From a virus (taxonomy: Duplodnaviria; Caudoviricetes), in the IMG/VR virus record IMGVR_UViG_3300021082_000318, positions 1-40,517 of that record: a DNA stretch of 40,517 nucleotides; one strand, written 5' to 3'. This document shows positions 5,761 through 36,577 of the stretch, one piece after another (the first letter of the stretch is position 1; every line of letters begins with the position of its first letter). The notes under the pieces were generated by a model. The model did not search any database, had not been told where the DNA came from, and saw only the letters and a program-made list of their open reading frames with translations. A program made the translations under genes and the position numbers.

Positions 5761-5955
5761 ATGCCGCTGAACGCTAACATAACGGATGCTCTCGCACTGC
5801 TTGGTCTCAAGACGCTGGAAGTCGAGCAACTTCGAAACCAGATGGAGTTGATGACCATCGAATACAACAAGCTCAACGACGAGAATCAGGAGCTCAGAGG
5901 AAGACTTCTGGTGCCTGACAAGGAACATCAACAGGCGTTGCGCGAGGTCAAGTAA
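5761..5955 (+). CDS. small coiled-coil protein (possible fibre chaperone)
   Basis: heptad-like 'LEVEQLRNQMELMTIEYNKLNDENQELRGRL'; TAATG coupled to next gene. Confidence 0.5.
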   Translation: MPLNANITDALALLGLKTLEVEQLRNQMELMTIEYNKLNDENQELRGRLLVPDKEHQQALREVK

Positions 5956-6419
5956 TGGCTGACTGGCTGAAACCGACGATTACCAGCGACTACATCAATT
6001 TCGTGGCCGAGCTCGATAGCCGCTTGAATGATGCAGCGCAGATGTTCGTCAATGACCCTGCAAATCCACCAGCGGGTGCCATCAGATACCAACGCTCCAC
6101 TAACCTGCTTCAAGAGTGGGATGGTGCGGCGTGGCAGAACAAAGTCATCTCCATTGCTGGTGGCGGCACGGGCGCGAGCACTCCGTCAGGTATCTTGGGC
6201 AATCTCAACCTCGGCACGATGGCGCTTCAGAACGCCTCTGCCGTTGCAATCACCGGCGGTTCGCTCTCTGGTATTACGTCACTGACTCTGGCAGGCAATC
6301 TCATTTTCGCTGCTGACGGAGTTGCTAGCATCGGCACGAACACAGTGAGGCCAAATGCGCTCTACATCCGCAACGGCCTCGTCATCCCGGTCGGCACTGA
6401 TAAGTTCGTCTCAGCATAA
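5955..6419 (+). CDS. tail fibre-like protein
   Basis: fibre-type motifs 'GAIRYQRSTNLLQEWDGAAW', 'IAGGGTGAST', 'LGTMALQNASAVAITGG'. Confidence 0.6.
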   Translation: MADWLKPTITSDYINFVAELDSRLNDAAQMFVNDPANPPAGAIRYQRSTNLLQEWDGAAWQNKVISIAGGGTGASTPSGILGNLNLGTMALQNASAVAITGGSLSGITSLTLAGNLIFAADGVASIGTNTVRPNALYIRNGLVIPVGTDKFVSA

Positions 6420-7534
6420 TGGCTAAGGTCCCTGGTAGCATTTGGGTGGAAGGAACTGCCCTTCACTTTGTCGCGAGTGACATGAGTGAGTGGAAGTATC
6501 AGGGCGAGACTGTCATTGGTGTCATAGAGATTGGACTTCCCGGCTCCCTGTGGATTGAGTCTGATTTTCTTTATTACGTCGGAGCAGACAACTTCGAGTA
6601 TCGGATTCTCCACACGCTCATCAAGCAGACGACTGGCATTGCTGGTAGTGTTTGGATTGACAACCAGAAACGCATCTCCTGGCTGGACTTTAGTCGGGCG
6701 CACAGGCAAGGGCACGGTGACGTTGCTCATTCGGACCATCAAGACAACACGCACTCGGATGGCGCGCATGGGGACATCGTTCACGAAGATTCGGCGCACT
6801 CTGATGTGGCGCACTCGGACCATCAGGATAACACTCATAGTGATGTTGCTCACAGTGACGTCACTCATGTTGATCATACTGATAATGACCATGATGATAT
6901 AAGTCATCTGGACAGTCACACTGATACAGCTCATGGTGATGTGGCTCACGCTGACCAGCCTCATTCTGATTGTGCGCATCAAGATAATCATGCTGATTCA
7001 GAATACAGTCTCCATCATGATTGGACACATCCGGGATGCCATAACGACCATACTGATGGCTCTCATGGGGATACTACTTATCCATCGAATCACGTGGATA
7101 TTCCCCAATGGGGTTCGCCTCCCAATTATGGTCATTCCGACTTCCATGCCGATACACCTCATTATGACTATGCTTCTCAGAATTCGCATACTGACGTTGC
7201 TCACAAGGACGTAGCTCATTCTGATCGATCGCATACGGACCATACGGATAACGATCACGATGACATTGTGCATAAGGACACCGCTCACTCTGACGCGACG
7301 CACAACGATCATCGAGACACTCACGGAGACGCAGGACACCAGGACGTAGCATTCCAAGACGTGTCGCATCAGGATGAGGGTCACAACGATCATCAAGACC
7401 AAGCTCTCGTTGCACAACCAGCGTTGGTTGAATTGCATACTGATATAGCTCACACTGACGTAGCTCATGGGGACCATGAAGATGGTGCTCATACGGATAT
7501 CGCCCACAGTGACTCGGGACACCAGGACATTTAG
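6419..7534 (+). CDS. His-x-Asp repeat protein; candidate virion substrate of the adjacent radical SAM enzyme
   Basis: TAATG coupled to fibre gene; 98-aa N-terminal domain with three GSxW[VI][ED] repeats, then about 51 HxD triplets (manual count). Confidence 0.85.
   Translation: MAKVPGSIWVEGTALHFVASDMSEWKYQGETVIGVIEIGLPGSLWIESDFLYYVGADNFEYRILHTLIKQTTGIAGSVWIDNQKRISWLDFSRAHRQGHGDVAHSDHQDNTHSDGAHGDIVHEDSAHSDVAHSDHQDNTHSDVAHSDVTHVDHTDNDHDDISHLDSHTDTAHGDVAHADQPHSDCAHQDNHADSEYSLHHDWTHPGCHNDHTDGSHGDTTYPSNHVDIPQWGSPPNYGHSDFHADTPHYDYASQNSHTDVAHKDVAHSDRSHTDHTDNDHDDIVHKDTAHSDATHNDHRDTHGDAGHQDVAFQDVSHQDEGHNDHQDQALVAQPALVELHTDIAHTDVAHGDHEDGAHTDIAHSDSGHQDI
6713..7531 (+). repeat. coding HxD(xx) repeat array
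   Basis: HGD VA HSD HQD NT HSD GA HGD IV HED... with mostly 5- or 3-residue period. Confidence 0.9.
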
Positions 7535-7542
7535 GAGTTGAC

Positions 7543-7800
7543 ATGCCTTCCTCAATCAGCATCGGATATCCGCAGGTGATTGCGGACAACGTGCCTCGCG
7601 CACTGCCTGGCAAGAAGTGCCGCCTGTTCATCACGGCAGGGACGGCGACTTCGATCGACATCAGCAACAACTCGGACATGACTGGCGCCAAGAACAGCGT
7701 CGTTGCGACCGGGGCGGCGTTCTCGGAATCTGGCGTCGACGTGGCGGCTGGCTTCCTCCGAGTCAACGGTGGGACGGCGACAGTGAGGTTGACGGCGTGA
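7543..7800 (+). CDS. small hypothetical beta-rich protein
   Basis: AGGAG RBS; 85 aa; stop overlaps the radical SAM start (GTGA). Confidence 0.7.
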   Translation: MPSSISIGYPQVIADNVPRALPGKKCRLFITAGTATSIDISNNSDMTGAKNSVVATGAAFSESGVDVAAGFLRVNGGTATVRLTA

Positions 7801-9014
7801 GCGTAGAACTTAATCCGTCCGGTGTCGCTTGCAATATCGGCTGCGTGTATTGCTACGAGAATCCCCTGCGTGACGCGAAGAACGTCAACGTGCCGTGGGA
7901 CTGGGAGAAGGTGCGCGCCGAGTTGGACAAGCATGGACAGTTCTCCCTTCACGGTGGAGAGCCATTCCTCGCGCCCATCGATCGCATCGAGAAGGCGCTG
8001 GAGTATGGCTTCAAGCGTCATGGAGCCACTGGTGCACAGACCAATGGGACGCTGATCACGGAGGCGCACATTGATCTATTTAAGAGATATAATACGCATA
8101 TCGGTATCTCTTGCGACGGCCCGGAACGATGCTCTGATGCGCGAGCGGCAGGAACGCAGGAAGAAACTCGCGCAGCAACTAAGAAGACAACGGACATTAT
8201 CGAGAGGCTCCATCGCGAGGGAATCCAAGTCTCGATAATCACTACCCTCTGGCGGGGGAACTGCCATGAGGACACGTTCTGGATGCTCTGCGAATGGTTC
8301 GAGAGATTGGACAAGCTGGGACTTCGGTGGGTCAATCTGCACTACCTTGAGGTCGATAGCAGACAGGCGTCCAAGCTCAGGGTCGATACACCGATCTTGA
8401 TCCAGCGCATGAAGCACCTGATGGGAATGGAGAGATCTTTCAAGAATCTCCGTTTCGAGAACTTCAAGGCATACCAGAATCTCCTCCGTGGAAACACCGA
8501 GGGGACAAACTGCGTCTGGCATGCTTGCGACGTGATGACGACGCCAGCGGTTCAGGGCATCAACGGTCAGGGCGAGCTGACGAATTGCAACCGCACGAAC
8601 AAGATGGGAGTCGATTGGAAGAAGGCTGACACATCCGGTATCGAGCGCCAGCACGCGCTCTACAACACGCCATACAATTACGGTGGCTGCAAGGGATGCC
8701 GTTTCTTCCTCATGTGCAAGGGTGAATGTCCCGGCACTGGACTCGACGGCGACTGGCGGAATCGGACCGAGCATTGCGAGGTCATCATGGCGATCTTCGA
8801 GCACTACGAGAACATGATGATCGATCTCGGCCAGACTCCAGCGTCACTGTCTCCTTGCAGGCCAAAGTGGGAACAGGAGTTCTTCGCTGGCAATCGCCCC
8901 ACTGCTGCTCATGGCGATGCCCCACATGGGGACTCGAAGCACGGCGATGCGCACGGTGATCACACAGATGCTCGGGTGCAAGCCTACGCGGAGGTTCGCC
9001 GTGAAGTGCGCTGA
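7797..9014 (+). CDS. radical SAM / SPASM-domain enzyme (peptide/protein maturase-like)
   Basis: GTG start 7797 with GAGG RBS; CNIGCVYC (CxxxCxxC), HGGEP, QTNGTLI, ISCDGP; SPASM pattern Cx14Gx4C...Cx2Cx5Cx3C...C. Confidence 0.92.
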   Translation: MSVELNPSGVACNIGCVYCYENPLRDAKNVNVPWDWEKVRAELDKHGQFSLHGGEPFLAPIDRIEKALEYGFKRHGATGAQTNGTLITEAHIDLFKRYNTHIGISCDGPERCSDARAAGTQEETRAATKKTTDIIERLHREGIQVSIITTLWRGNCHEDTFWMLCEWFERLDKLGLRWVNLHYLEVDSRQASKLRVDTPILIQRMKHLMGMERSFKNLRFENFKAYQNLLRGNTEGTNCVWHACDVMTTPAVQGINGQGELTNCNRTNKMGVDWKKADTSGIERQHALYNTPYNYGGCKGCRFFLMCKGECPGTGLDGDWRNRTEHCEVIMAIFEHYENMMIDLGQTPASLSPCRPKWEQEFFAGNRPTAAHGDAPHGDSKHGDAHGDHTDARVQAYAEVRREVR

Positions 9015-10341
9015 TTTCAGGTTGGAGGACTTCACTCGGAGCCAATGGGCACCGGGCGCGCGTGAGATCTGGGAGCCGCGCTTCAGGGAAGTCTCTGCGA
9101 TGTGGCGTGATCTGGAGATTCAGCTAGTAGCACGCAACCTGAAGGCAGGTGCGCTACTGGTCGTCTCACCAGAGGACATGCCGAGGCTTTCGCGCACGGT
9201 TCACGATCTTGGCCTGATACTGGTCATCCTTGCACAGCAGGGTAGGGGAGGTCAGCCTTATGCGTCGACTACTCCGGCCTACGTCGAGGGTCAGCCGTTC
9301 GACTACCGTGTCGCAGTCTGCACAAACATGGTTGCGACGGTCTGGCTCAACGCCTGGGAAACCGGAGACAACGAGACCATTGGTATCCTCTTGGGATATC
9401 CTGAGTGCTGTCGTCGATTCTTCAAAGCTACCTGGGTGGAGAAGAACCTAGTCGATACCACTTGGGAGCAGGCAAGGAACGGCAACGAGCCGGATCTCTA
9501 CGATGTCATCACTGTTGCGCCTGATCCTGCTTGCAACGTTACTTTGCGTCATCTCGGGTTACGCTGGGTGTCGCATCTACCGTGCTCTCTTCACTGCCGA
9601 GCGACCATCGACTACGTTGACAGCATTCGACCTGTCATTCGAGAGCTTTATCCTGAGGCGTATCGGACGCTGAGCGAGGCTCTCCAGTGGCCGGTGAAGT
9701 GGTCGGCACTACATGGCATCGCAGAGATCGTGACCCCGGTGTGCCGCATCATCTCCAGAACCGATGCGACGCTGGTGAAATATACGGTGCACCAGGTAGG
9801 TTCACTGTATCCGGAAGCAGGTGCGAGAGGAACAGAGTTTCCATTCAGGACTCCGGAGCGTCAGCGTATCATGTTTCAGAAGAAGAACACTTGGTCGCTG
9901 AACGGATTCAGCAGCTACGATGCAATGATCAAGGCTCACAACACTGTCATCCATGCGGCGGGTGACATGAAGGGCAAGACGCTCATCGATCTCGGATGTG
10001 GGACTGGACAGCTCTTGAAGGTCTATCGAGGTATCGCTTCTGAGCTGCATGGGGTTGACATCAATCCGGCTGCGATTGCTGCTGCGATACCGGATATGAA
10101 TGTTCGCACTCTGAACATTTTCGACCCCGCCGTATTCGACCGAGACTTTGACGTCGCGTTCATATCGGTCCAACGGTTTGAGGAGAATCCAGAAGGTGCC
10201 GAGATCTTCCTGACCAACCTGATGAGCCGGACCAAGGAGGTTGTGTTCTACTCCTATGCCGAGACGACTGGCTGGGAGTGGGTCCCAAAGACTCCATCAA
10301 TCGTCAGTGGTCACACTTCTGCGACAAAGGTCGTATGGTGA
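9001..10341 (+). CDS. Cys/His-rich (DUF483-like) domain fused to class I SAM-dependent methyltransferase
   Basis: GTG start 9001 after GGAGG; 'LLGYPECC' and 'HLPCSLHC' motifs; C-terminal 'LIDLGCGTG' and 'GVDIN' methyltransferase motifs. Confidence 0.75.
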   Translation: MKCADFRLEDFTRSQWAPGAREIWEPRFREVSAMWRDLEIQLVARNLKAGALLVVSPEDMPRLSRTVHDLGLILVILAQQGRGGQPYASTTPAYVEGQPFDYRVAVCTNMVATVWLNAWETGDNETIGILLGYPECCRRFFKATWVEKNLVDTTWEQARNGNEPDLYDVITVAPDPACNVTLRHLGLRWVSHLPCSLHCRATIDYVDSIRPVIRELYPEAYRTLSEALQWPVKWSALHGIAEIVTPVCRIISRTDATLVKYTVHQVGSLYPEAGARGTEFPFRTPERQRIMFQKKNTWSLNGFSSYDAMIKAHNTVIHAAGDMKGKTLIDLGCGTGQLLKVYRGIASELHGVDINPAAIAAAIPDMNVRTLNIFDPAVFDRDFDVAFISVQRFEENPEGAEIFLTNLMSRTKEVVFYSYAETTGWEWVPKTPSIVSGHTSATKVVW

Positions 10342-13424: not shown

Positions 13425-16400
13425 ATGTATCCACCAGACCCGCAACCACGTCGCTATGATCCGTTCGTGAGCCAGCAGACCAACTGGTTCACACCGGATT
13501 TCACACCTGAGGTCCAGCCCCCGGCTCCAAACTTCGGGATGCCAGAGCCATTCTCCTACAACTCTCGGCCACAGCTGGGAGATGGATCGTATGGTCCTGA
13601 AGCGATGCAGAGGCAACAGGCCCCAGCTCCGGCTCCACAGTCGCGACTGGACATACCAGAGCCTGGTCATGAACGCCAGACGAAGTTCCGGTTCCGTAAC
13701 AAGAACACTGGCGAAGTGATGGAGATGGACTGGTATGGTCAGCAGCCTCCAACGCGGGAGGATATCGAACTGTATCAGCGCCAGCAAGAAGGTGGTGGGT
13801 TACAGAAGGCGTGGGACTGGGCCAACAAGCCTCTGACCGATGCTCCCTCCAGAGCGGCTCGGTGGTTGACCAGCATCGCACCTGACGAAGTGGCGATGGG
13901 TGATCGAATCAATCAGTGGACTGGCACCAATCTGGGGGATTACACAGCGGCCGCGACCGGCTTCATGAAGGGCGCTGTCGAGGGGGCTGGTGATGTAGCT
14001 TCATCCTTCACCTCTCCCATGTCCCTCGGACTGATGGCTACCACGGGTGGTGCAGGTCTGTCTGCAAGGGCTGGTTTGGGAGCCGCATCCAAGGCACTGT
14101 CTGCAATCGAGGCAGGAGCCGGTGCTGGTCTGGCAGCACACGGTGGCTATCGTCTTGCCAACGCGGACAACTGGCAGGAGGCGGCATGGGCGCTGCCTGA
14201 GATCGCTGGTGGTGTGCTTGGTGCGAGGGGTGGCTACAATCGATACAATCAGCTTGCCAATCCCCCTGCTCCGCCTCCCATCACGGACCCGACGCGCCTC
14301 TTGCAGCAGGAGAACCCTGTCCTCCCACCGTCCAAGACGGGGCCGCGCTTCTACGCTGGTGCCGCTGGTGTCGCTGATGCTCATGAGGGTGTCTACACAG
14401 AGAACATGAGCAACCTCGCGAATCCGTTCACCGAGAACGCGATGAACATGACGTGGGGTCCGGAGCAGATTGGTGAACAGGTCAAGCTGCCTGCCCAAAT
14501 CGCGGCCGAGATTGGTGTCGAAGGACGACGCCGACCTGTGCGCCCGATGATCGAGCCTATCGAACCCGAGGTCTTCAATCCGGTTGGAGATCCGAATGTC
14601 CTTGCTCCCGGAGAGATTGCAGCACGTAACGAACTCCCCGCAGTGGGTCGTCCTGAGAACCGCCGTGACGTCATGGTCGACGTGATCAAGGACATGGTGG
14701 GTGACGAGCTCAATCTGCCCCGTGACGCACAAGGGAACATCGCTCGTGGTGGTGTTCCTCTGCGTCCACGTGTCGGAGCGATGCCAGACATCCTTGATCC
14801 CAACGCTCCTGCCCTGTCACCAGAGACACCATCGTCAGGTCCACCGGCACCTCCTCCCCCGCCACCCCCAGCTGGGCCGAGGATTGGTGCGGCTGGTCGA
14901 CGAGCGGTGGCGAAGATCGACGAGATTCTTGGGACTGATCCCATTGCTGGTCATCCAGATCCCGACAACGTCACCAACCCACGTCTTGTTGGACTGAAGC
15001 TGCTCCAGCAGGATGGTCAGCGAATCAACGCGGCTGCCGCGCAAGCTGGTATTCCACGCGCCATCTTTGTCAAGCACCTCAAGCGGCTGATCAAGGAGGA
15101 AGGTGGCTTCCTCGACGTCGGCGCTATCGGTGAAGGGTTTGGCAAGGCAAAGGCTGCTGTCGGTGCGAAGGCTACCGAGATAAGCGAGGCTGCCAAGAAG
15201 AAGTTTTCGACCAAAGTTTCGCAGATCGAGAAGACGATTCCGGAGGCAGTGCCGATTCTCCGTGATTGGATGGGCAAGAGGTCGGCGGCTGAGACTCGTG
15301 GTGTCATCGAGGGTGAGAAATTCCGTCATCTTGACGCACCTGAACTGGAGAAGGTCCTCGAGTATCAGGCGCACCCTGAACGCTATCCTGACGTGGCCAA
15401 GTATTTCGAGACCGGTCGCCAGCGTGCCATCGACGCAGACCTGGCACTTGGCCTGAAGGAGAACTACCTGCCCCAGCTCTGGGACAACACACCAGAGGAG
15501 ATCAGTGCAGCGTTCGCCAAGAAATACGGAACGACTGCCAAGCCAGGTGATCCCCTTGCAGTCCCACCTACCCCCAAAGGGCGGGTGACGATGAAGCCGA
15601 CGTTCACTCTCAAATCGGTTGTCGAGAACTACAAGGAAGGCCTGGAGATGGGCCTCAAACCGAAGATCAAGAACATCTCCGAGCTTGTCAACTGGTATGA
15701 GAAGTCTCTCGAAAAGGCCAAGGCTGACAGAGAGTTCTTCTTCAAGATGCGCGACTCAGGCCTCATCCGTCCTGCAGGCAAAGCGCCTCATGGATGGGAG
15801 GATCTGAAGTCGGATTACTTCCCCTCGTTCGGCAAGAAGGGACAGCTGAAGTATACCTATAAGGCGCATCCCGACATCGTGAAGGTGGTCGAGAACTACA
15901 TCAAGCAGCCCACCGGATTCTGGAGTTCCGTGGGTGACGTGGTGCAGACGAGCAAGGACATTGCCATGTCATCTGGCATGGTTCCGGGCACCGCATTAAA
16001 TGCTCATGGGCTGAACATTCTTGCGCGCACGGGAGCCGCTCGGGGAGTCATCAAGGGCACACTGGAGGGCATTGGCTACATGCTCAACACTGGTGCCGAC
16101 AATCCGGTAGCGAGGAAGATCGAGAAGGTCGCACCATGGCAGAGCGCGAAGGCTTACCTCAAGGAGAACTTGAAGGACGCACCGAAGTATGTCGAGCAGG
16201 GGCTGAACATGTCCACGGAGGGGTTCAAGTTTGGTGAAGAACGCCACACCAATCCCTTCCTGAAACTGCACGGCAAATACTTTGAGGACCCACTATTCCA
16301 GAACATGGTCCCAGCGCTCAAGCTCAAGCACGCCAAGGACCTCACCACTCAGTTCATGCGAGATGGCATGACTGAAAAGGTGGCGATGCAGAAGGCTGGC

Positions 16401-17126
16401 AAGATAGCCAACGAGACCTTTGGTGGTATCAATATCGACATGATGTTTCGGGACAAGTCGTTCCAAACCGTCATGCGTTCGGCCCTGATTGCACCAGACT
16501 GGCTGGAATCGAACGCGCGCGTCGGTGTGGGCATGGGCAAGGCGCTTGTCAAGGGAGGCGCTGAGAGCAAGCCTTACAAGCAGATGGCAGCAGGTTTCTT
16601 CGGATCGTATCTGCTTGCCAACGCAGCGAACAAGTTCATGTCGGGTCACTTCATGTGGCAGAACGACCCAGGCCACACGTTGCAGATCGACACTGGCCAG
16701 ACCATCAAATCGGGGAACAAGAGGAAGAAGGTCCACATCAACCCGTTCGGCACAGCATTCGACGCCATCCGACTTCCAGCAGAGACTGTCACTGCCGCGG
16801 CCAAGGGTGATCTAAGTCAGGCGGGACGAATCCTCAAGAACCGTGCCTCACTGCCTGCTGCCTCGTTCGGCAACTGGCTCTACAATGAGGACTGGAGAGG
16901 TCGGGAATTGGGAGGCAAGACGGCGTTCGGAAAGCCTGTTCCCTTTGGCACGTCGGTGCAGAGGAACATCTCCAACATCACTGATCCCTTCACGCCTCAG
17001 TATCTTGGGGCTGCGAAGGAAATGATGTTCGAGGGAACGAGCTTTCCGGAGGCAATCATGGGAGCGGTCGAGGCTCCTGTCAGATTTAGCAGCAAGCCTC
17101 GACCCAAGAGAGCGCGGCGTCGCTAG
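13425..17126 (+). CDS. large internal virion / ejection protein
   Basis: about 1233 aa from ATG 13425; Pro-rich linkers, Gly/Ala hydrophobic segments, basic C-terminal half; last gene of the virion operon. Confidence 0.6.
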   Translation: MYPPDPQPRRYDPFVSQQTNWFTPDFTPEVQPPAPNFGMPEPFSYNSRPQLGDGSYGPEAMQRQQAPAPAPQSRLDIPEPGHERQTKFRFRNKNTGEVMEMDWYGQQPPTREDIELYQRQQEGGGLQKAWDWANKPLTDAPSRAARWLTSIAPDEVAMGDRINQWTGTNLGDYTAAATGFMKGAVEGAGDVASSFTSPMSLGLMATTGGAGLSARAGLGAASKALSAIEAGAGAGLAAHGGYRLANADNWQEAAWALPEIAGGVLGARGGYNRYNQLANPPAPPPITDPTRLLQQENPVLPPSKTGPRFYAGAAGVADAHEGVYTENMSNLANPFTENAMNMTWGPEQIGEQVKLPAQIAAEIGVEGRRRPVRPMIEPIEPEVFNPVGDPNVLAPGEIAARNELPAVGRPENRRDVMVDVIKDMVGDELNLPRDAQGNIARGGVPLRPRVGAMPDILDPNAPALSPETPSSGPPAPPPPPPPAGPRIGAAGRRAVAKIDEILGTDPIAGHPDPDNVTNPRLVGLKLLQQDGQRINAAAAQAGIPRAIFVKHLKRLIKEEGGFLDVGAIGEGFGKAKAAVGAKATEISEAAKKKFSTKVSQIEKTIPEAVPILRDWMGKRSAAETRGVIEGEKFRHLDAPELEKVLEYQAHPERYPDVAKYFETGRQRAIDADLALGLKENYLPQLWDNTPEEISAAFAKKYGTTAKPGDPLAVPPTPKGRVTMKPTFTLKSVVENYKEGLEMGLKPKIKNISELVNWYEKSLEKAKADREFFFKMRDSGLIRPAGKAPHGWEDLKSDYFPSFGKKGQLKYTYKAHPDIVKVVENYIKQPTGFWSSVGDVVQTSKDIAMSSGMVPGTALNAHGLNILARTGAARGVIKGTLEGIGYMLNTGADNPVARKIEKVAPWQSAKAYLKENLKDAPKYVEQGLNMSTEGFKFGEERHTNPFLKLHGKYFEDPLFQNMVPALKLKHAKDLTTQFMRDGMTEKVAMQKAGKIANETFGGINIDMMFRDKSFQTVMRSALIAPDWLESNARVGVGMGKALVKGGAESKPYKQMAAGFFGSYLLANAANKFMSGHFMWQNDPGHTLQIDTGQTIKSGNKRKKVHINPFGTAFDAIRLPAETVTAAAKGDLSQAGRILKNRASLPAASFGNWLYNEDWRGRELGGKTAFGKPVPFGTSVQRNISNITDPFTPQYLGAAKEMMFEGTSFPEAIMGAVEAPVRFSSKPRPKRARRR

Positions 17127-17350
17127 GGGCCAACACGCTGTGTCCGAGCGACAGCACCATTCGCCCAGAACATGGCTTCCTCCAGCTTCGTGAACATGAG
17201 CGACTTCTCCCGTCCCTCGGGAATGGTGTCGTTCATCTTCAGGGCCAGGTCCTTGAACTCCTCACGAATCATGTCGTGAGCTTCAATGATCTGGTCCGCC
17301 GTGGGTGGATGGTGCTTGAATCGCTCGATGAGTTCTTCGTCACTGGTCAT
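17123..17350 (-). CDS. Acb2/Tad1-like helical hairpin protein (candidate immune-signal sponge)
   Basis: ATG 17350 with GAGG RBS; 75 aa; 'FKHHPP...GREKSLMFTKLEEAMFWANGAVAR' motif. Confidence 0.65.
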   Translation of the reverse strand: MTSDEELIERFKHHPPTADQIIEAHDMIREEFKDLALKMNDTIPEGREKSLMFTKLEEAMFWANGAVARTQRVGP

Positions 17351-17357
17351 GGTATCC

Positions 17358-18545
17358 TCACTGCGACAACTTGCTGAAGTTTTCGACAACCTTTGAGCTC
17401 AGTATGTAGTAGGTATCTCCACCCCCTTCACTGACCTTCACGGCCTTCTGCTGCTGCAAGGACTCCATGATACGATCCAAGTCATACGAGTCCAGATGCC
17501 CCCAGTATTTCGTTAGGATCTCTGACTTGGACGCTGAGAACGTCGGAGGCCTGCTAATAAGCTCCTTGAGAACAAGCGCTGTCTGTGGTCCGAGAGGATT
17601 CTTTCCGGCACCCATCGTAACGCGACGAACGCCAGGCACTGTTCGCCTTGCCTGCTCCAGAGCCTCCTCGATATCCTCCTTTTCAAGGACGAGGTCCAGT
17701 TTTCTGGAGAGGGAGATAAGCATCGCGATCTTGAGGATCGTGTCGTGGATTCTCTCCAACGTGCCCGTATCGTCATCGTTGACCTTTGAGTTGAACTCGG
17801 TATACCACTTGTCGTAAAGGTCGCGCCCTTCCTCTGACCACTTGAACTCACCCTCTATCGCCTTCACCTGCTCTACATACTTCTGTAGGTCCCCTATCTC
17901 CAGTGAGTTGACGGGCCTACGTGTCAGCGAGTTGATTCCATTCTTACGGTCAGCATACACGATCACAGTGCGCGCGATGAACCCACCGCCCAGAGCATTC
18001 TCCGGCACGGCCTCCTTGAAGTGGACCTCGTTACTGGCCCCTAGCATGGAGAGACAGACGTTCTTGAGCTTCTCATTGCCCGACACCTTCGTCATGTTCG
18101 ACCAACCATCAGGGTGGTAGTGCCCATCATATAGATCGGTGAGGATCGTGAGGGCTTGCTGGTCTTGGATGATGAACGACGCGAACTCTGAGCTGCTCAA
18201 GTAGCCTACTGAGTCGACAAGTGGTGGCCCTCCCTGAATCGAATGAGCGGTTGACAACTCGCTGATGACCTTCTGGATGGATGTTCGTCCCGAGATCACC
18301 CGCGTAACTTTCGCCCCTGACACCAGCTGCTTGGCAAGGGCGACTGGTATGCCCTTCCTGATCCCCGACTTTCCAATCAACAGGACGTAGAGGTTCGGAT
18401 AGAGCTTGTAGTAGAACTTGTCGAGGAACACTTTGTTCCGGACAACTCCCGACAAAGCTGCAAGACCGGCCCAATAGAAGTATTGCTTTGGAGATTCCGA
18501 TTCCCGAGCATACTCTAGGACCTTGTCAAGCCACGGACTTGACAC
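17358..18545 (-). CDS. DUF3987/YfjI-like P-loop ATPase (putative replicative helicase)
   Basis: 'YPNLYVLLIGKSGIRKG' Walker A variant, 'SSEF', 'LTDLYD', 'GGFIAR'; directly downstream of the polymerase. Confidence 0.65.
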   Translation of the reverse strand: MSSPWLDKVLEYARESESPKQYFYWAGLAALSGVVRNKVFLDKFYYKLYPNLYVLLIGKSGIRKGIPVALAKQLVSGAKVTRVISGRTSIQKVISELSTAHSIQGGPPLVDSVGYLSSSEFASFIIQDQQALTILTDLYDGHYHPDGWSNMTKVSGNEKLKNVCLSMLGASNEVHFKEAVPENALGGGFIARTVIVYADRKNGINSLTRRPVNSLEIGDLQKYVEQVKAIEGEFKWSEEGRDLYDKWYTEFNSKVNDDDTGTLERIHDTILKIAMLISLSRKLDLVLEKEDIEEALEQARRTVPGVRRVTMGAGKNPLGPQTALVLKELISRPPTFSASKSEILTKYWGHLDSYDLDRIMESLQQQKAVKVSEGGGDTYYILSSKVVENFSKLSQ

Positions 18546-21063
18546 GATACCCTCCGATTTCGAACTCTTTTAAGGCACCATAGTTCTGTCCTACCTTCAC
18601 TTCACAAGGGATGATCAGAGATTCCCTCGGTAACGTGCAGTGGGTGAAGTCGATCGGCCGCTCGAACGCCGGGATTGCGACCGAGAGATACTCGTCACGC
18701 CTCGCTTTCGGAACAATAGCTACCAATGCATCGTGCGCTTCTAGGCACAACCACTTGCGCGCGTCCGGTAGCTTGTCAACGATCTCCAATCCTGCCCTCT
18801 TCGTTTGATCTGCGACAGTGGACTGCGGTATCTGGGCAAATGCTTCACGGAGAAGCTCATCGTTCCATCTGCCAAGGAACTGTCGCCGTCGACCAAACGG
18901 GTTGACCAACGTCATCATGTTGTTGAGGAGGGCTTGCTCAACTTCGACATGGAAAACCTGACGTATGGAAGGGTTATACTCGTGAAACTTGTCGAGGATT
19001 TCCCCAGCACGCCACTCGGAAATCTCAACGTCAATATGATATCGCTTGGCATCAGTGTTGACGAGGAACATGAGACGTCGCTTTCGCATCCCATAATTTC
19101 CGGCGTGTCGCGTAGTCTTTCCGATAAACCGTAGTTCTTTATTAATTCTCTCAGGGTTGATACCGAATATCCAGGAAGCTGTAAGCTTATGGATATCCAC
19201 GCGTCCAAACATTTCAAGAGTTTTATCGTCTCGTCCGAGGAGAGCAACGACTCGTGCCTCCGCCTGCGACTGGTCGATCTCGATGAACTCATAATCATCA
19301 TCGGCTTCGAAGATCTCGCGAACTTCTGCGCCGTCCCCATACTTGGTTAGAGTCTGGAAAGCCAGACCGATAGACTTCTTCTTTTTCTTTCCGTTAATCT
19401 TAACGGTGACTTGGGGTCTGACTGGTGGCTTCAGGAGAGAGTTGCTAGTTCGTCCGGTTTCGGTTCCGACAATGCGAATGGATGTCCGCATTCTCCCATC
19501 GAAGTCAGGGACTGCGAGGAAGTAGGTGCCTAGAGCTTTCTTGAGACGACGCGTTGTGAGGATCTGCTCGCAAGAGTTTCGCTTCCTCGCATCTTTCTTG
19601 GCGTGGTTAGCTTGCAGTGCGACAATGGTTTCCTCGTCCGTATGGAACTTGAAGTAACGCTTGCCTGTCTTGGGATTGACTTTCCACTCACCACGTTCGG
19701 GAAACTTCAGTTCCTTGTAGAGATACGTAGCGACCTGTGGTTGCGAGTTGACATTCAGGTTGAACCCTGCCAGCTCCGTCATGCGAGCCTCGGCTTCGGC
19801 AACCTTCTGCATATACTCGCGGACTAGCTTGGCGCGCTTCTCCTTGTTGATCGGGAGGCCCACCTTCTCCATGTCCATGTAGAACTGATGGAATCTGTGG
19901 ACGAATCCAAAGTAGAAAGTGTCGAACCAGTTGGGGAAACCGGGCACTTCCACCTGTCGCGCCTCTGCCAGACACTTCTTCGCGGCTTCGAGAGTGACTG
20001 CTGCATCGCGCGCGTTGTAGATCAGGAAGTCATCTATCTTCTGTTTGGCCCAGTTGAAGTCCTTGCCATCGTCCTTGTAGTATGGCTCCTCAGTATAAAT
20101 GGACGTGCTGAAGCCCAGAGACTTGGGAAGCTCTGGATACAGCGTCGCCATCATCAACATCAGATCAGCACGGCAGTTGCCAATCCGAAAGCCACATGGA
20201 CGCTCTAGCTTGTCGTGGTCGAACTTGAAGTTCTGTCCGATGACTTTGAGTTCGGGGCGCGCGAGATGTGCGGCAAGGATACGCCACATCTGAACGAGTT
20301 CGTGCTTGTGTATCCCCGTTTGATTCTGGAGCGAGAATACGTCCAAGAGTGGAACCGATACCCCATGGTTCGGAGTAAATGAAAGGCCCACGCAAATGGG
20401 TATAGCTCGAATGACCTCGATGTCGACCGAGAGCGTATCATAATGCGAGTAGAACTCGAAAAAACGAGCAAGTGATACTGCCGAACGGATAATCTCCAGT
20501 CGCCTTCTCGGTGGTTTGTAGTCTGGGAAGCGCGAGTGCTCAACTGCACGTTTAATGTCGTGGGCAATATAGACACGAGCAGAGAACGAGTAAGCTCCAC
20601 CCTGCCCGCCACCCTCCGAGTGGAGGAGAGCCGCTGGATGGATAGACCCCACCACTTTCGTGCGAACGTCCTTCGCGAGTATGACGGACCCACGCCACTT
20701 CTGAATCCCATCTTTGTGTGCCGTCGCTTTGAGTGCTGTGTTGCCGAGGGCGAGGATACAGTTTGGTTGAACCGTGCGAATCTCAGTCCACAACTCCTCT
20801 ATGCACTTGTCGAGATCAAGTCCGATCAGACCTATCTTCTTCAGGTCATTCATCGGAGGCTGATACTTGACGACGTTGGTAATATAGACCTCGGACCTAT
20901 GGATACCTGCCTCGCTAAGCATCTCCTCCAGTAGTTCCCCTGAAGGGCCGACGAAGGGCCGACCGATCCTGTTCTCATGTGCACCGGGAGCTTCCCCGAT
21001 GATCATGAGTCGAGCATCGCCCGGCCCCTCGCCACGAACGTATTGCAGACCCTCTAAGTCCAC
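18526..21063 (-). CDS. polA: family A DNA polymerase with N-terminal uracil-DNA glycosylase-like domain (SPO1-type fusion)
   Basis: UDG family 4 motifs GEAPG, GRPFVGPSG, HPAALL; exonuclease DIE / NFKFD / YNARD; polymerase motifs TETGRTS, DQSQAEAR, KTTRHAGNYG, HDAL. Confidence 0.93.
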   Translation of the reverse strand: MDLEGLQYVRGEGPGDARLMIIGEAPGAHENRIGRPFVGPSGELLEEMLSEAGIHRSEVYITNVVKYQPPMNDLKKIGLIGLDLDKCIEELWTEIRTVQPNCILALGNTALKATAHKDGIQKWRGSVILAKDVRTKVVGSIHPAALLHSEGGGQGGAYSFSARVYIAHDIKRAVEHSRFPDYKPPRRRLEIIRSAVSLARFFEFYSHYDTLSVDIEVIRAIPICVGLSFTPNHGVSVPLLDVFSLQNQTGIHKHELVQMWRILAAHLARPELKVIGQNFKFDHDKLERPCGFRIGNCRADLMLMMATLYPELPKSLGFSTSIYTEEPYYKDDGKDFNWAKQKIDDFLIYNARDAAVTLEAAKKCLAEARQVEVPGFPNWFDTFYFGFVHRFHQFYMDMEKVGLPINKEKRAKLVREYMQKVAEAEARMTELAGFNLNVNSQPQVATYLYKELKFPERGEWKVNPKTGKRYFKFHTDEETIVALQANHAKKDARKRNSCEQILTTRRLKKALGTYFLAVPDFDGRMRTSIRIVGTETGRTSNSLLKPPVRPQVTVKINGKKKKKSIGLAFQTLTKYGDGAEVREIFEADDDYEFIEIDQSQAEARVVALLGRDDKTLEMFGRVDIHKLTASWIFGINPERINKELRFIGKTTRHAGNYGMRKRRLMFLVNTDAKRYHIDVEISEWRAGEILDKFHEYNPSIRQVFHVEVEQALLNNMMTLVNPFGRRRQFLGRWNDELLREAFAQIPQSTVADQTKRAGLEIVDKLPDARKWLCLEAHDALVAIVPKARRDEYLSVAIPAFERPIDFTHCTLPRESLIIPCEVKVGQNYGALKEFEIGGYRVKSVA

Positions 21064-21066
21064 GGT

Positions 21067-21336
21067 CTACTTGACCCTAGAAAAGATTGTCCGTCGGATC
21101 TGCTCCTCCAGGTCCTGCCTCTGCAGGTTCAGCTGGGCGATCTCGGTGGACAACTCCTCCGCTCGGGCCGCGCTCGACTTCGCCTTTTCCAGGAGATACT
21201 CTCTGACTCCCGCCTTCACTTCCAGGCGCATCTTCACCTGCATCAGGCGCTTCTCGATCTCCTCCCGCTGGCTCGGGATATCGCGGTGGCTCTGGGTAGG
21301 CGTGTTGGCCGATTCTGACTCCTGCTCGATTCGCAT
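21067..21336 (-). CDS. coiled-coil hypothetical protein
   Basis: ATG 21336 with AGGAGG RBS; 'ARAEELSTEIAQLNLQRQDLEEQIRR'; stop abuts the pol start. Confidence 0.6.
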   Translation of the reverse strand: MRIEQESESANTPTQSHRDIPSQREEIEKRLMQVKMRLEVKAGVREYLLEKAKSSAARAEELSTEIAQLNLQRQDLEEQIRRTIFSRVK

Positions 21337-21796
21337 GAAGCGTGATCCTCCTGAGGTCTTCCTCGTCGTCGTCTTTGTGTTCGGTCCAGTAGTAGGTCTT
21401 GGTGATGACCTTGAGCGCCTCGATGAGATCCTGCCGTGAGACGCTGTCCACATGGACGGTGAATCTGTCGTGCGTGAACAGGGACTTCTGTGCCCAGCCC
21501 CACACCACGACTAGCTTCCGCTGCTCCATCGCAATGCCGAGTTCCACCCACTTGCCAGTGGAATCGATCGACAGGATGGGGTCGTTGATCAGCAGGATGG
21601 CATCGGCGCGCGTCACGTCCCTGAAGTCGAGGTCGATGAAGTGCTGGTGCCCGAGCTTGCTGAGTTCCGCGTCCTCCTCCCCTTGCAGGAGCCAAGTGCT
21701 GGTGCACTCGAAGTCGGGAACCTCTTGCTTGATCGCATCGACGAGACGATCGATCTCGAACCGATGCGCGTATGACCCTGCCACGTAAAACTTCAT
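21077..21796 (-). CDS. nucleoside 2-deoxyribosyltransferase / nucleotide N-glycosidase-like protein
   Basis: 'KFYVAGS', 'DFRDVTRADAILL', 'GKWVELGIA' (catalytic Glu motif); C-terminal ~85 aa overlap the next ORF. Confidence 0.7.
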   Translation of the reverse strand: MKFYVAGSYAHRFEIDRLVDAIKQEVPDFECTSTWLLQGEEDAELSKLGHQHFIDLDFRDVTRADAILLINDPILSIDSTGKWVELGIAMEQRKLVVVWGWAQKSLFTHDRFTVHVDSVSRQDLIEALKVITKTYYWTEHKDDDEEDLRRITLHANRAGVRIGQHAYPEPPRYPEPAGGDREAPDAGEDAPGSEGGSQRVSPGKGEVERGPSGGVVHRDRPAEPAEAGPGGADPTDNLF

Positions 21797-21797
21797 C

Positions 21798-23129
21798 TCA
21801 ATCCTCCAACATCTGCGTTTCAGCTGCCGGTGCCACGACCTTCGGTGTCGTCTTGTCGATCTGCTTGTCGATGCGCTTTACGATGTTGTCGTAGAACGCC
21901 TTGTCCCTCTCGATCGTGACGTATTTCCTGCCGAGCCGGAGACATGCGTCGGCAGTGACCCCTGACCCACCGAAGGGATCGACGACGAACGCACCCTTGT
22001 AGGTGCAATCCTCGATCAAGTCCATGATCAGGTCAACCGGTTTCTCGTTAGGGTGCAGTAGAGACGGTGGAGGAACTGCCTTGTAGGTCTTGAAAGCACT
22101 GATATTGCCAGTGCGAGCCAGAACGGGAGAGCCCTTACATGCGACCAGGATCGTCTCGAAGTCACGGTCATACTCCCACGTCCGCACACCACGGCGAGAC
22201 AGCGCGTTGATTTTCTGCCAGAAGATCGGAGTCTTGGCCGTCTTGAATCCGATCTTTTCGAGCGCACCATACTTGTGCTTCTGGTTGCCCGCGTCGTCGA
22301 GGTAGTCATACCCCGAGTAGTAGATGTAGTCGTCGATCGAGACGAACATGAACAGGAACGCGTCAGCTTTGAGAACCCTGAACAACTGCTGGAAGACAGG
22401 CAGGGTGCGCGCGTCCAACGTCAGGGTGGGGTCGTAGAAGTTCAGCCACGGTGGGTCGGTGACGCAGGCATCGAAGGTGAAGTCGGGGATGCGCTCCAAG
22501 ATGTGCGCGCTGTCTCCGAGATAGACCTGATCTCCTTCGATCTCCAGCTCTCCCATCGACGCTATGGTTTCGGACTCCATGCGACGTATCGAGGCGCGCA
22601 CGAGCTTCACTGCGGTGCGTCGATCCTTGATGTTGCGGAGGGAGGGATCGATCTGGACAGCCTTCGCCAGATTCAAGTCCTCTGCGACACCGCCAAGGGA
22701 GAGTCCAAGTTCACTCGCGGTCTCACGGATGCCCCAAACCTTTTCGTCCTTCTTCGGACGGCCGCGCCCTTCCTTCTTGCCGTGCTGCTCTTGTCGCAGT
22801 TCATGGAGCTGCTGCACTAGCGTCACCGCTTCCCACCACGGGAGGTTGTGACGGTGCAGATTCTCGTGCACGCGCATGATCTTAGCGTCCACGTCGTTGG
22901 GCTGCTTCACTTCGGCAGCGAGCTCGGTCCAGCCCAACAGCTTGGCTGCCTCGTATCGCTTGGCCCCGGTGACTACCTCGTAGCCATCAAGGATATTGTT
23001 CAGCGGTCGAACAATAATTGCATGAAGCTGGCCCTGTTCCTTGAGCGAATCGAGGAACTCATCCCGCTCCTTGTCGTCATCCCACGTTACGGGGATGTTG
23101 CAGGTGATACGTTCGATTGGTATCTGCAT
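21798..23129 (-). CDS. ParB/Srx N-terminal domain fused to N6A/N4C DNA methyltransferase
   Basis: 'SLKEQGQLHAIIVR...VTGAKRYEAAKLLG...ENLHR' ParB; TDPPW, HPNEKP, DPFGGSG methylase motifs in beta-class order. Confidence 0.88.
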   Translation of the reverse strand: MQIPIERITCNIPVTWDDDKERDEFLDSLKEQGQLHAIIVRPLNNILDGYEVVTGAKRYEAAKLLGWTELAAEVKQPNDVDAKIMRVHENLHRHNLPWWEAVTLVQQLHELRQEQHGKKEGRGRPKKDEKVWGIRETASELGLSLGGVAEDLNLAKAVQIDPSLRNIKDRRTAVKLVRASIRRMESETIASMGELEIEGDQVYLGDSAHILERIPDFTFDACVTDPPWLNFYDPTLTLDARTLPVFQQLFRVLKADAFLFMFVSIDDYIYYSGYDYLDDAGNQKHKYGALEKIGFKTAKTPIFWQKINALSRRGVRTWEYDRDFETILVACKGSPVLARTGNISAFKTYKAVPPPSLLHPNEKPVDLIMDLIEDCTYKGAFVVDPFGGSGVTADACLRLGRKYVTIERDKAFYDNIVKRIDKQIDKTTPKVVAPAAETQMLED

Positions 23130-35600: not shown

Positions 35601-35852
35601 ATGACCGGAATCGGACCAGTAAACGGATCAGTAGCAACACAACCACGTCAGGAAAACGGAGTCGTCCGTAAGCTCAAGGACGGCTTTGGCTTCATCGCTG
35701 GCAACGACGGGAAGGACTACTTCTTCCATTGGTCAGCAATGCAGAAGACCACGAAAGATTTCCGGCAGCTCGAAGTAGGCGATCGTGTCGAGTTCCTTTG
35801 TCTCGACGCAGAGAAGGGACCACGCGCCATCGAAGTTCGAGTGACAGGCTAG
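35601..35852 (+). CDS. cold-shock domain protein
   Basis: RNP1 'GFGFI', RNP2 'YFFHWS', 'GDRVEF', 'KGPRA'. Confidence 0.9.
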   Translation: MTGIGPVNGSVATQPRQENGVVRKLKDGFGFIAGNDGKDYFFHWSAMQKTTKDFRQLEVGDRVEFLCLDAEKGPRAIEVRVTG

Positions 35853-35905
35853 GATATCGGAATCAACCATCGTCGCACAAACCGTCAACCAGGAGAACGC
35901 ACACC

Positions 35906-36577
35906 ATGAAGAACCGACTCTCCAGCAAGATCGCGATCACCATCGCAGCCCTGTTGCTCAGTGCATCAATCGCGCGCGCCGACCAGATCGTCAGCTTCGG
36001 TCAGCTTGGCACAACGAACACCTTCCTCGCCACGAACAACGGTGATGGGACCACGACCCTCGATGTCACGCTAGGCGGCGTGTCCATCACGAACATCGTG
36101 ACTGGTGCAACCGACCCCAACGCCGTTTTCGAGTTCGATGCCACCAGCGTGGATGCCGCTTCCCTGCTGGCCGGGACGATCATCACGCAGAGCTTCGAGG
36201 GGACGTTCTCGCTGCACAATCAGGCGAACACGATCCAGTATCTCTACGGTGACTTTGGCGCGGCCCTCATGCTGGGCGGCAATGGCGGGACGGGATCTCT
36301 GTTCACGTCGAACACCGCGGGACTCGCGCCTCTCAACCTGTTCACCGATCTGCCGGTTACGCTCGGCGATCCGATGAGCTTCTCGCTCTCACTGTCGAAC
36401 GTGTCGCCCGCGCTCGGGATCAGTGGTGGGACGATCAACAGTTTCACCGCCAGCTACACTGGCACCGCAGACGCAGAGCTTCAAGTGCCCGTGCCTGAAC
36501 CGGCGACGCTGACGATGCTGGGCGCCGGACTGCTCGGCCTCGCGGGTGCTGCGCGTCGTCGTCTCAGCAGGAAGTAG
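35906..36577 (+). CDS. PEP-CTERM surface protein
   Basis: signal peptide ending ARA-D; C-terminal VPEPATLTMLGAGLLGLAGAARRRLSRK. Confidence 0.92.
   Translation: MKNRLSSKIAITIAALLLSASIARADQIVSFGQLGTTNTFLATNNGDGTTTLDVTLGGVSITNIVTGATDPNAVFEFDATSVDAASLLAGTIITQSFEGTFSLHNQANTIQYLYGDFGAALMLGGNGGTGSLFTSNTAGLAPLNLFTDLPVTLGDPMSFSLSLSNVSPALGISGGTINSFTASYTGTADAELQVPVPEPATLTMLGAGLLGLAGAARRRLSRK

Follow-up and report, generated by a model that had tools for sequence, protein, structure and literature searches.

A widespread radical SAM gene module with arrays of aromatic-x-Asp/Asn triplets on a candidate tail-fibre cap protein of viruses

We describe a gene module of a tailed virus in which a radical S-adenosylmethionine (SAM) enzyme is encoded close to a protein built largely of His-x-Asp (HxD) triplets. 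The window, by which we mean the whole analysed stretch of 40,517 nucleotides (nt), is a linear 40.5-kb virus record (IMGVR_UViG_3300021082_000318) that is 84% complete and whose genes match families of an SU10-type adaptor, a tail/host-specificity protein, DNA polymerase A, a helicase and a terminase. The genes of the locus lie on the plus strand and begin with a tail-fibre-type protein of 154 amino acids (aa; 5955..6419) that ends in the docking motif LVIPVGTDKF and whose stop codon overlaps the start of the HxD gene in a TAATG, which couples the two genes translationally. The HxD protein (6419-7534, 371 aa) consists of an N-terminal attachment domain with three GS[IL]W repeats (6419..6712; W9, W45, W79) and an array of 51 triplets (6713..7534), within which lie a variable centre (about 6962-7189, from comparison with the closest relatives) and a C-terminal extension of 33 aa (7433-7531) that carries seven more HxD and is absent from the three closest relatives. 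After a gap of 8 nt comes the gene of an 85-aa protein (7543..7800), joined by a GTGA to the gene of a radical SAM/SPASM enzyme of 405 aa (7797..9014). The last gene (9001..10341), referred to as the partner, encodes a DUF483-like Cys-rich domain (about residues 1-288) followed by a class I SAM methyltransferase (about 289-446); its start is most likely the GTG at 9001, giving 446 aa, with a GGAGG upstream and at the position where its relatives begin, rather than 8911. A sequence-only reading of the same DNA had described four tightly packed genes between fibre genes and ejection genes. All four open reading frames (ORFs), the methyltransferase fusion and the GTGA junction are present, while the TAATG belongs to the fibre gene, the HxD and 85-aa genes are separated and the start of the fusion moves. 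The downstream genes gave no match in our family scans, and calling them ejection genes is an assumption from gene order.

The locus was found in near-identical pieces in two sequencing runs from freshwater sediment, one of them possibly the origin of the record, which contain 0.99 and 0.97 of the sampled words of the window. Since the second run covers most pieces at 99% identity or more, the locus is not a product of faulty assembly. In a relative from run X2 the stretch across the array is 222 nt shorter. Promoter and terminator scans remained at chance level, and no RNA datasets containing the window were listed.

The HxD protein has 51 of its 56 His residues in triplets, mostly spaced five residues apart, as the sequence-only reading had counted (about 51), compared to 10.9±2.7 triplets and a maximum of 21 in 10,000 shuffles of residues 95-371. 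The His and Asp codons of the array are mixed and Tandem Repeats Finder reports a single weak 36-bp row, which excludes a DNA tandem repeat; the pattern is consequently maintained at the protein level. Totals over 46 array proteins are 1297 HxD, 209 HxN, 128 FxN and 105 YxD, and in 45 proteins Asp or Asn stands two positions after His in 98% of cases, after Phe in 61%, after Tyr in 41% and after Trp in 31% (background 23%; 5-8% after Ile, Leu or Val). The motif is aromatic-x-Asp/Asn, with only aromatic residues at position 1. The first and third residues covary, Phe going with Asn, and His and Tyr with Asp; one nearly His-free fibre has 37 FxN against 6 HxD, Phe replacing His in register. Many His-x-Glu triplets occur in one further array (L059:7111-9294). 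Six loci (L030, L031, L042, L043, L049, L054) have Cys pairs placed roughly symmetrically around the array midpoint, a pattern consistent with a disulfide closing the tip.

The identity of the enzyme as a radical SAM/SPASM protein is confirmed by a match to PF04055 above the cut-off (E=4e-13), the CxxxCxxC and HGGEP motifs, and eight SPASM cysteines (C239, C244, C264, C298, C301, C307, C311, C327) predicted to hold two auxiliary clusters; the 3+8 cysteines are invariant in 69 of 69 aligned relatives. The C-terminal tail of the enzyme, in a low-confidence region of the model, itself contains five HxD triplets (about 8910-8969), which the sequence-only reading had overlooked, and at least two are found in this tail in 59 of 119 relatives. 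The nearest solved folds are anaerobic sulfatase-maturating enzyme (anSME; template modelling score 0.60) and the cyclophane synthase ChlB. The enzyme had been likened to named maturases of triceptides (peptides with three-residue cross-links). Placement among these families does not bear out membership: scores against NCBIfam cut-offs are 70.5/425 for AmcB, 49.6/310 for GrrM, 44.4/445 for YhhB, 33.3/370 for FxsB and 30.7/450 for XyeB, and ten other members of the enzyme family fall equally below the cut-offs of the named triceptide synthases. In a tree whose references are model-labelled loci, not characterised synthases, and whose supports are of the Shimodaira-Hasegawa type only, the family is monophyletic (approximate likelihood ratio support 99.3) and sister to unnamed SPASM rows.

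An assignment to the anaerobic sulfatase maturases fails as well. These enzymes have as a hallmark an acidic residue after the last cysteine ligand of the first auxiliary cluster, where Asp has its role; the corresponding position 265 is Gly, Asn, Ser or Thr, and never Asp, in 60 members, and the score against TIGR03942 is 73.6/349. One position further on, two residues after the cluster ligand C264, Arg or Lys is found in 58 of the 60 members (R266 in the window enzyme), a residue that would face the substrate. In the two members that deviate, and in a third locus added later (L103, L108, L204), position 266 is Asn or Leu and position 268 is Asp, and the proteins encoded upstream of these three enzymes end in repeats of YxK or HxK. 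Arg is retained at 266 in an HxD-tailed relative of the same order. One further member was found among 400 genomes of the order of L108. Position 241 of the enzyme does not cleanly track FxN content. Three large phages (L027, L049, L054) have two paralogous enzymes, one of them with a tail of 13-25 HxD, beside fibres with both HxD and FxN, motifs that the paralogues may divide between them.

The association of enzyme and array extends well beyond the window. In a word-limited search at least 1,487 proteins passed E<=0.001, and identity was 43% or higher for the best 120 of them. At least 56 distinct viral and at least 29 cellular family loci were compared with 23 viral and 50 cellular control loci encoding distant radical SAM proteins. 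An array of His/Phe-x-Asp/Asn is present in 53 of the 56 viral family loci, and of the three without, two are cut off 1.4 kb and 0.4 kb upstream and the third is on a contig of 8 kb. None of the 23 viral or 50 cellular controls has an array when the strict HxD rule is applied; a looser rule passes six of the 23 viral controls, three of which represent a separate YxD/HxN/WxN system. The partner accompanies the enzyme in 52 of 56 viral and 27 of 29 cellular loci. The co-occurrence of HxD protein, radical SAM enzyme and DUF483-like partner that the sequence-only reading proposed to look for is found, and its choice of the HxD protein as the likely substrate is strengthened. In the reverse direction, viral contigs were scanned with a DNA pattern for four HxD, the hits of which are mostly short or off-frame tandem repeats; an ORF of at least 150 codons and 12 motifs lies beside the enzyme in 15 of 18 contigs (10 known, 5 new), and the other three include one off-frame reading and one collagen-type fibre. 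Two apparent counter-examples were rejected, G412 because it is a pentapeptide-repeat gene read off-frame, and G415 because it is a Thr-rich giant ORF with exact tandem units. Collagen-type fibres ending in 14 HxD, next to glycosyltransferase-like genes, occur at L240:9815-10921 (minus strand), L288 and L324. The module is also present in the cultured Thermus phages Cumys (54 HxD), phiMa (53) and phiLo (72+101+47), and in proviral copies in Bacillota and haloarchaea; no plasmid matched at E<1e-40. We conclude that the module is real, widespread and uncharacterised.

Nor is it confined to phages. Arrays occur in 19 of the 29 cellular loci, on short peptides, on peptides with signals resembling those of twin-arginine translocation (Tat) or on giant proteins, and the neighbours include PqqD (4 loci), HExxH peptide hydroxylases over the cut-off (4) and RiPP (ribosomally synthesised and post-translationally modified peptide) C-methyltransferases (2); the cellular members lie in peptide-modification clusters. 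The short HxD peptides of seven loci (L088, L095, L098, L099, L100, L101, L104) have twin-arginine-like signals as judged by eye, and several of these loci adjoin PqqD, an HPr-kinase-like gene and an NTP_transf_5 gene. The giant proteins, of 830-1,660 aa and no clear family, are encoded directly upstream of the enzyme and carry the triplets as a C-terminal tail, HxD in L087, L089, L110 and L203 and YxK or HxK in L103, L108 and L204. Nineteen non-proviral cellular enzymes form one clade nested among the viral ones, with a support of 71, a weak value that makes a viral origin possible only.

The fold predicted for the partner is confident (predicted local distance difference test, pLDDT, 91) and shows a Cys-rich domain joined to a class I methyltransferase; fold searches returned methyltransferases only, the N-terminal domain being barely covered. 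The sequence-only reading had named DUF483. That family (PF04467) is absent among five of the seven Pfam matches listed for the window protein; a protein 64% identical to the window partner (L002) matches it below the cut-off (E=6e-5), one relative exceeds the cut-off (L109, 26.5/25) and five fall just under it; we use the looser name DUF483-like. The methyltransferase is optional, being present in 45 of 56 viral and 6 of 29 cellular loci, and the best solved match of its profile is the peptide methyltransferase BpumL (E=4e-12). The 85-aa protein, which had been counted as part of the system, matches no Pfam, PHROG or NCBIfam family, and a tblastn search of all loci analysed finds it only in the four closest contigs (L001-L004); it is not part of the module core and appears as a lineage-specific passenger.

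Several lines of evidence connect the array protein with the tail. Its N-domain of 98 aa is the commonest form among array proteins (alignment A3), and in 31 of 46 distinct N-domain loci a motif similar to LVIPVGTDKF forms the C-terminal end of the gene directly upstream, although the upstream proteins belong to unrelated families and range from 95 to 1,426 aa. A complex model of three copies of fibre residues 78-154 with one N-domain scored 0.92, compared to 0.01 for the best of three controls, with at least 97% of contacts shared among runs and a partner pLDDT of at least 91; the mark for this score, which 116 of 157 solved pairs and 2 of 215 mismatched pairs attain, holds only roughly for a job of three chains plus one. 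In the model, binding is through fibre residues 141-154, where residues 144-145 of each chain are in contact with a different one of the Trp residues W9, W45 and W79. The N-domain is thus predicted to cap the upstream fibre trimer, as a monomer seated on three chains via its three Trp residues, through the conserved C-terminal motif. Arrays also occur as fusions with a central tail fibre of the J type, with collagen fibres and with LamG virion proteins, and on account of these fusions and of the docking motif and model the array protein is likely a part of the virion. The sequence-only reading of the protein as structural gains support in this respect. Because 85 of 107 proteins with the three-Trp domain carry an array and the remainder carry other cargo or none, the domain is a general snap-on module. 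Proteins such as P0130, P0133, P0145, P0173, P0185, P0207, P0223 and others combine it with Ig-like, LamG, lectin or Cys-rich cargo, and it sits at either protein end, as an unnamed general fibre-tip adaptor. No solved chain matched the N-domain by sequence under E=0.8 and no gp38 PHROG did; Atlas leads for the N-domain of a homologue (Mtd_N, a trimerisation region) were all below 0.9.

A close analogue in architecture is the gp38 adhesin of T-even phages (S16 gp37(3)-gp38; PMC6851490), where a monomer caps a fibre trimer via three Trp residues around the axis, as predicted here, and hypervariable distal loops stand on an unusual low-complexity scaffold. gp38 has a helical bundle, in contrast to the beta-type GS[IL]W repeats, and its scaffold is polyglycine instead of HxD, glycine-rich motifs being absent from the HxD protein; in the accessible part of that text no modifying enzyme is described, and no sequence match to gp38 was found. 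The T4 gp37 needle (PMC6957217) likewise has a His-rich elongated tip with a receptor site at the turn, but it is a trimer with seven His-bound irons and has, as described there, neither Asp triplets nor a radical SAM neighbour.

The shape of the array can be approached through the spacing of its motifs. In 58 arrays the first half fits the reversed second half better than the direct one (mean z 2.15 versus 0.77, Wilcoxon p=3e-5), two arrays are exact mirrors across 18-19 steps, and the three closest relatives of the window protein give p=0.005-0.02. The centre is the most variable part (identity 0.16-0.44, compared to 0.7-0.9 in the flanks, among the closest four), identity is likewise lowest at the centre between Cumys and phiMa, and the pair L057/L058 has no such dip. 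Based on the mirror spacing and the variable centre, we infer that the array may form an antiparallel hairpin with a receptor-binding turn. When the halves are paired in this way, HxD stands opposite HxD in 348 of 577 pairs, Phe motifs face His motifs above expectation, and Phe faces Phe in 20 pairs against 27.9 expected.

Taken together, we propose that the phage would make an adhesin-like protein capping its trimeric tail fibre, in which the radical SAM enzyme, helped by the DUF483-like partner, would join the aromatic ring of each HxD triplet to the beta-carbon of the Asp two residues on. Once cross-linked, the repeats would be folded into a stiff hairpin that runs out and back and bears a variable tip for host binding. 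The tip would bind the receptor, and the methyltransferase would be an optional tailoring step on His or Asp. We consider it probable, at roughly four in five, that the enzyme and its partner modify the array, and give about even odds to an i to i+2 carbon-carbon cyclophane as the bond, a triceptide-type ring inside each triplet. The earlier proposal that SPASM chemistry would act on a structural protein is partly supported, through the motif set, which matches triceptide motifs, and through the likely place of the protein in the virion.

The system would work like a triceptide system and is not a member of a named family. Known three-residue cyclophane-forming enzymes and their relatives (XncB-XyeB, OscB-GrrM, MscB-FxsB, YxdB, HaaB, YhhB, HtkB, ChlB) share with it a SPASM fold near anSME and ChlB, aromatic-X-X3 motifs with His, Phe or Tyr at position 1, an enzyme residue that tracks X3, and HExxH and PqqD neighbours in cells. 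Such synthases accept Phe-x-Asn and Tyr-x-Asp as substrates (PMC11002830); HaaB, YhhB and HtkB join His C2 to the beta-carbon of Ala, Arg or Lys (PMC11002830, PMC11499958), and in HtkB/HaaB one active-site residue tunes X3 (PMC11499958). The present family differs in falling below the family cut-offs, in forming a separate clade, in its DUF483-like partner and in acting, as proposed, on a virion protein of 200-1,400 aa with tens of motifs, with no leader, protease or exporter in the phage. The array proteins have the aromatic-X2-X3 motifs of triceptide-class substrates, whereas the small leader-bearing precursor that is cleaved and exported is replaced in the window by a 371-aa protein with an attachment domain and is partly recognisable in some cellular loci. 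No protease or transporter family was found among the 35 window ORFs scanned, as the sequence-only reading had stated.

A number of points weigh against this proposal. The enzyme lies below all curated cut-offs and in its own clade, not as sister to GrrM, FxsB or YhhB-like rows, and His-to-Asp is not among the cross-links listed in the accessible part of the review (PMC11002830). The switch to xK tails is confined to a single clade and therefore counts as one event, and many loci are close relatives, several near-identical, so that the counts overstate independence. Ten of the 29 cellular loci have no array: two have xK tails, two short Tat-like peptides and six no candidate. A genome-wide HxD pattern search in the ten cellular genomes without an obvious neighbour found off-frame and His-rich background and no precursor, three of them having long upstream proteins or xK tails outside the density rule. 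No radical SAM gene was found in the records of L240, L288 and L324, which are 15-41% complete, and the phage module shows no evident leader or recognition element. The mirror is weak in the window protein itself (p=0.73 for the whole array; p=0.048 minus its private C-terminal extension, a trimming chosen afterwards). Without L012, in which 16 of 17 rungs are Phe:Phe, only 4 Phe:Phe pairs are observed against 11.9 expected; the avoidance of Phe by Phe across the hairpin points to cross-strand contacts, which ring formation alone leaves unexplained. The proposal was weighed on sequence comparisons and models.

The cross-strand pattern also speaks for another reaction at the same triplets, such as a covalent ladder between the strands, a bond from His N to the beta-carbon, epimerisation, dehydrogenation, or beta-modification of Asp/Asn. 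Mirror spacing and the preference of Phe motifs for His motifs opposite favour this reading, the enzyme clade has no characterised member, and the Cys-rich partner without a known fold has no counterpart in the descriptions of triceptide systems, as far as their accessible text goes. We nevertheless hold such a reaction to be possible but somewhat unlikely, because residues 1 and 3 covary inside the triplet, the rungs of L012 pair Phe with Phe, and the triplet is kept in short cellular peptides and in the enzyme tail, where there is no long hairpin.

An array that is a metal-bound needle, with His and Asp ligands from facing strands and an enzyme that acts elsewhere or tunes the ligands, is in our view improbable. 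The His-bound iron along the T4 needle (PMC6957217), the HxD:HxD majority across the hairpin, the Tat-like signals of several cellular peptides, which suggest export of a loaded product, and the HxD fibres without a detected enzyme in incomplete records would suit it; but Phe, which is no metal ligand, takes the place of His in register, to the point where one fibre is nearly free of His, HxK and YxK tails are accompanied by a corresponding change in the enzyme, the model predicts a monomeric and not a trimeric cap, and the tight enzyme linkage would be left unexplained. Modification of phage DNA or a nucleotide by the enzyme and partner, with the HxD gene a mere neighbour, is very improbable, since the module lies among tail genes, its cellular neighbours are peptide-modification genes, the methyltransferase profile points to BpumL and a pattern search finds deazapurine-pathway motifs in 1 of 88 family loci (L059, with QueC/FolE/QueD motifs at 15002-18035, 4 kb away on the other strand), although cyanobacterial homologues have been reported beside deazapurine genes (PMC11437467).

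DNA modification is the function suggested in print for a three-gene "rSAM module" of Cumys and phiMa (Kolesnik et al. 2024; PMC11437467). The window module matches its order of a homologous radical SAM gene, a DUF483-like gene and a third gene: the enzymes are 42% identical, a DUF483-domain gene is adjacent and the third, "unknown" gene is the HxD protein, with the difference that the Thermus partner lacks the methyltransferase domain. The word histidine is absent from the accessible part of that text. The earlier remark that no characterised equivalent exists in phages must be qualified to this extent, as the module is in print with a different guess as to its function. In the open-access literature we found no connection between the enzyme and either the repeats or a virion protein, while subscription papers (such as a 2022 triceptide survey) and supplements may list the family; the accessible part of PMC12186529 contains nothing on the module.

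The His-Xaa-Ser system HxsA-D resembles the HxD system in that a His-x-residue repeat protein goes with radical SAM enzymes. Its motif and partners (NCBIfam) differ, no Hxs model is among 25 of the 43 matches listed for the window enzyme, and none matched the repeat protein.

If the proposal is correct, radical chemistry of the RiPP type is used to make part of a virus particle, and a determinant of host range depends on an enzyme-made polymer that structure prediction from sequence misses. The enzyme would also handle a large protein that has tens of motifs and no evident leader, a property useful for peptide engineering. A broader generalisation, which we offer tentatively, is that viruses of bacteria and archaea make receptor-binding needles, given their shape by an enzyme, from the three-Trp module and a palindromic aromatic-x-Asp/Asn chain of tens to more than 100 triplets, each stapled by a leader-free virus-encoded enzyme, and that the cellular clusters descend from the viral system. 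Added here to what is published on the module are the docking motif with a model of the complex, the variability of the tip and a rule for pairing across the strands. Three cultured phages of Thermus thermophilus HB8 carry the module, which makes the proposal directly testable, and the published DNA-modification guess predicts otherwise.

A second phage system with a different enzyme clade, possibly a convergent solution, was seen at L065:6137-11092, L066 and L068:3003-7794, where a tail-region protein of Tyr-x-Asp/His-x-Asn/Trp-x-Asn units (YSDHTNTG-like) precedes three radical SAM genes, the DUF483 partner being absent. Elsewhere in the window, a gene at 18526-21063 (minus strand) fuses an N-terminal domain of the uracil-DNA-glycosylase family to DNA polymerase A, and a gene at 21077-23129 (minus strand) fuses ParB-N to an N6/N4 DNA methyltransferase beside a nucleoside deoxyribosyltransferase-like gene. 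A PEP-CTERM protein (35729-36577, plus strand; PF07589 over the cut-off) carries what is a surface-sorting signal of host cells, and its presence in a phage hints at a Gram-negative host with an exosortase.

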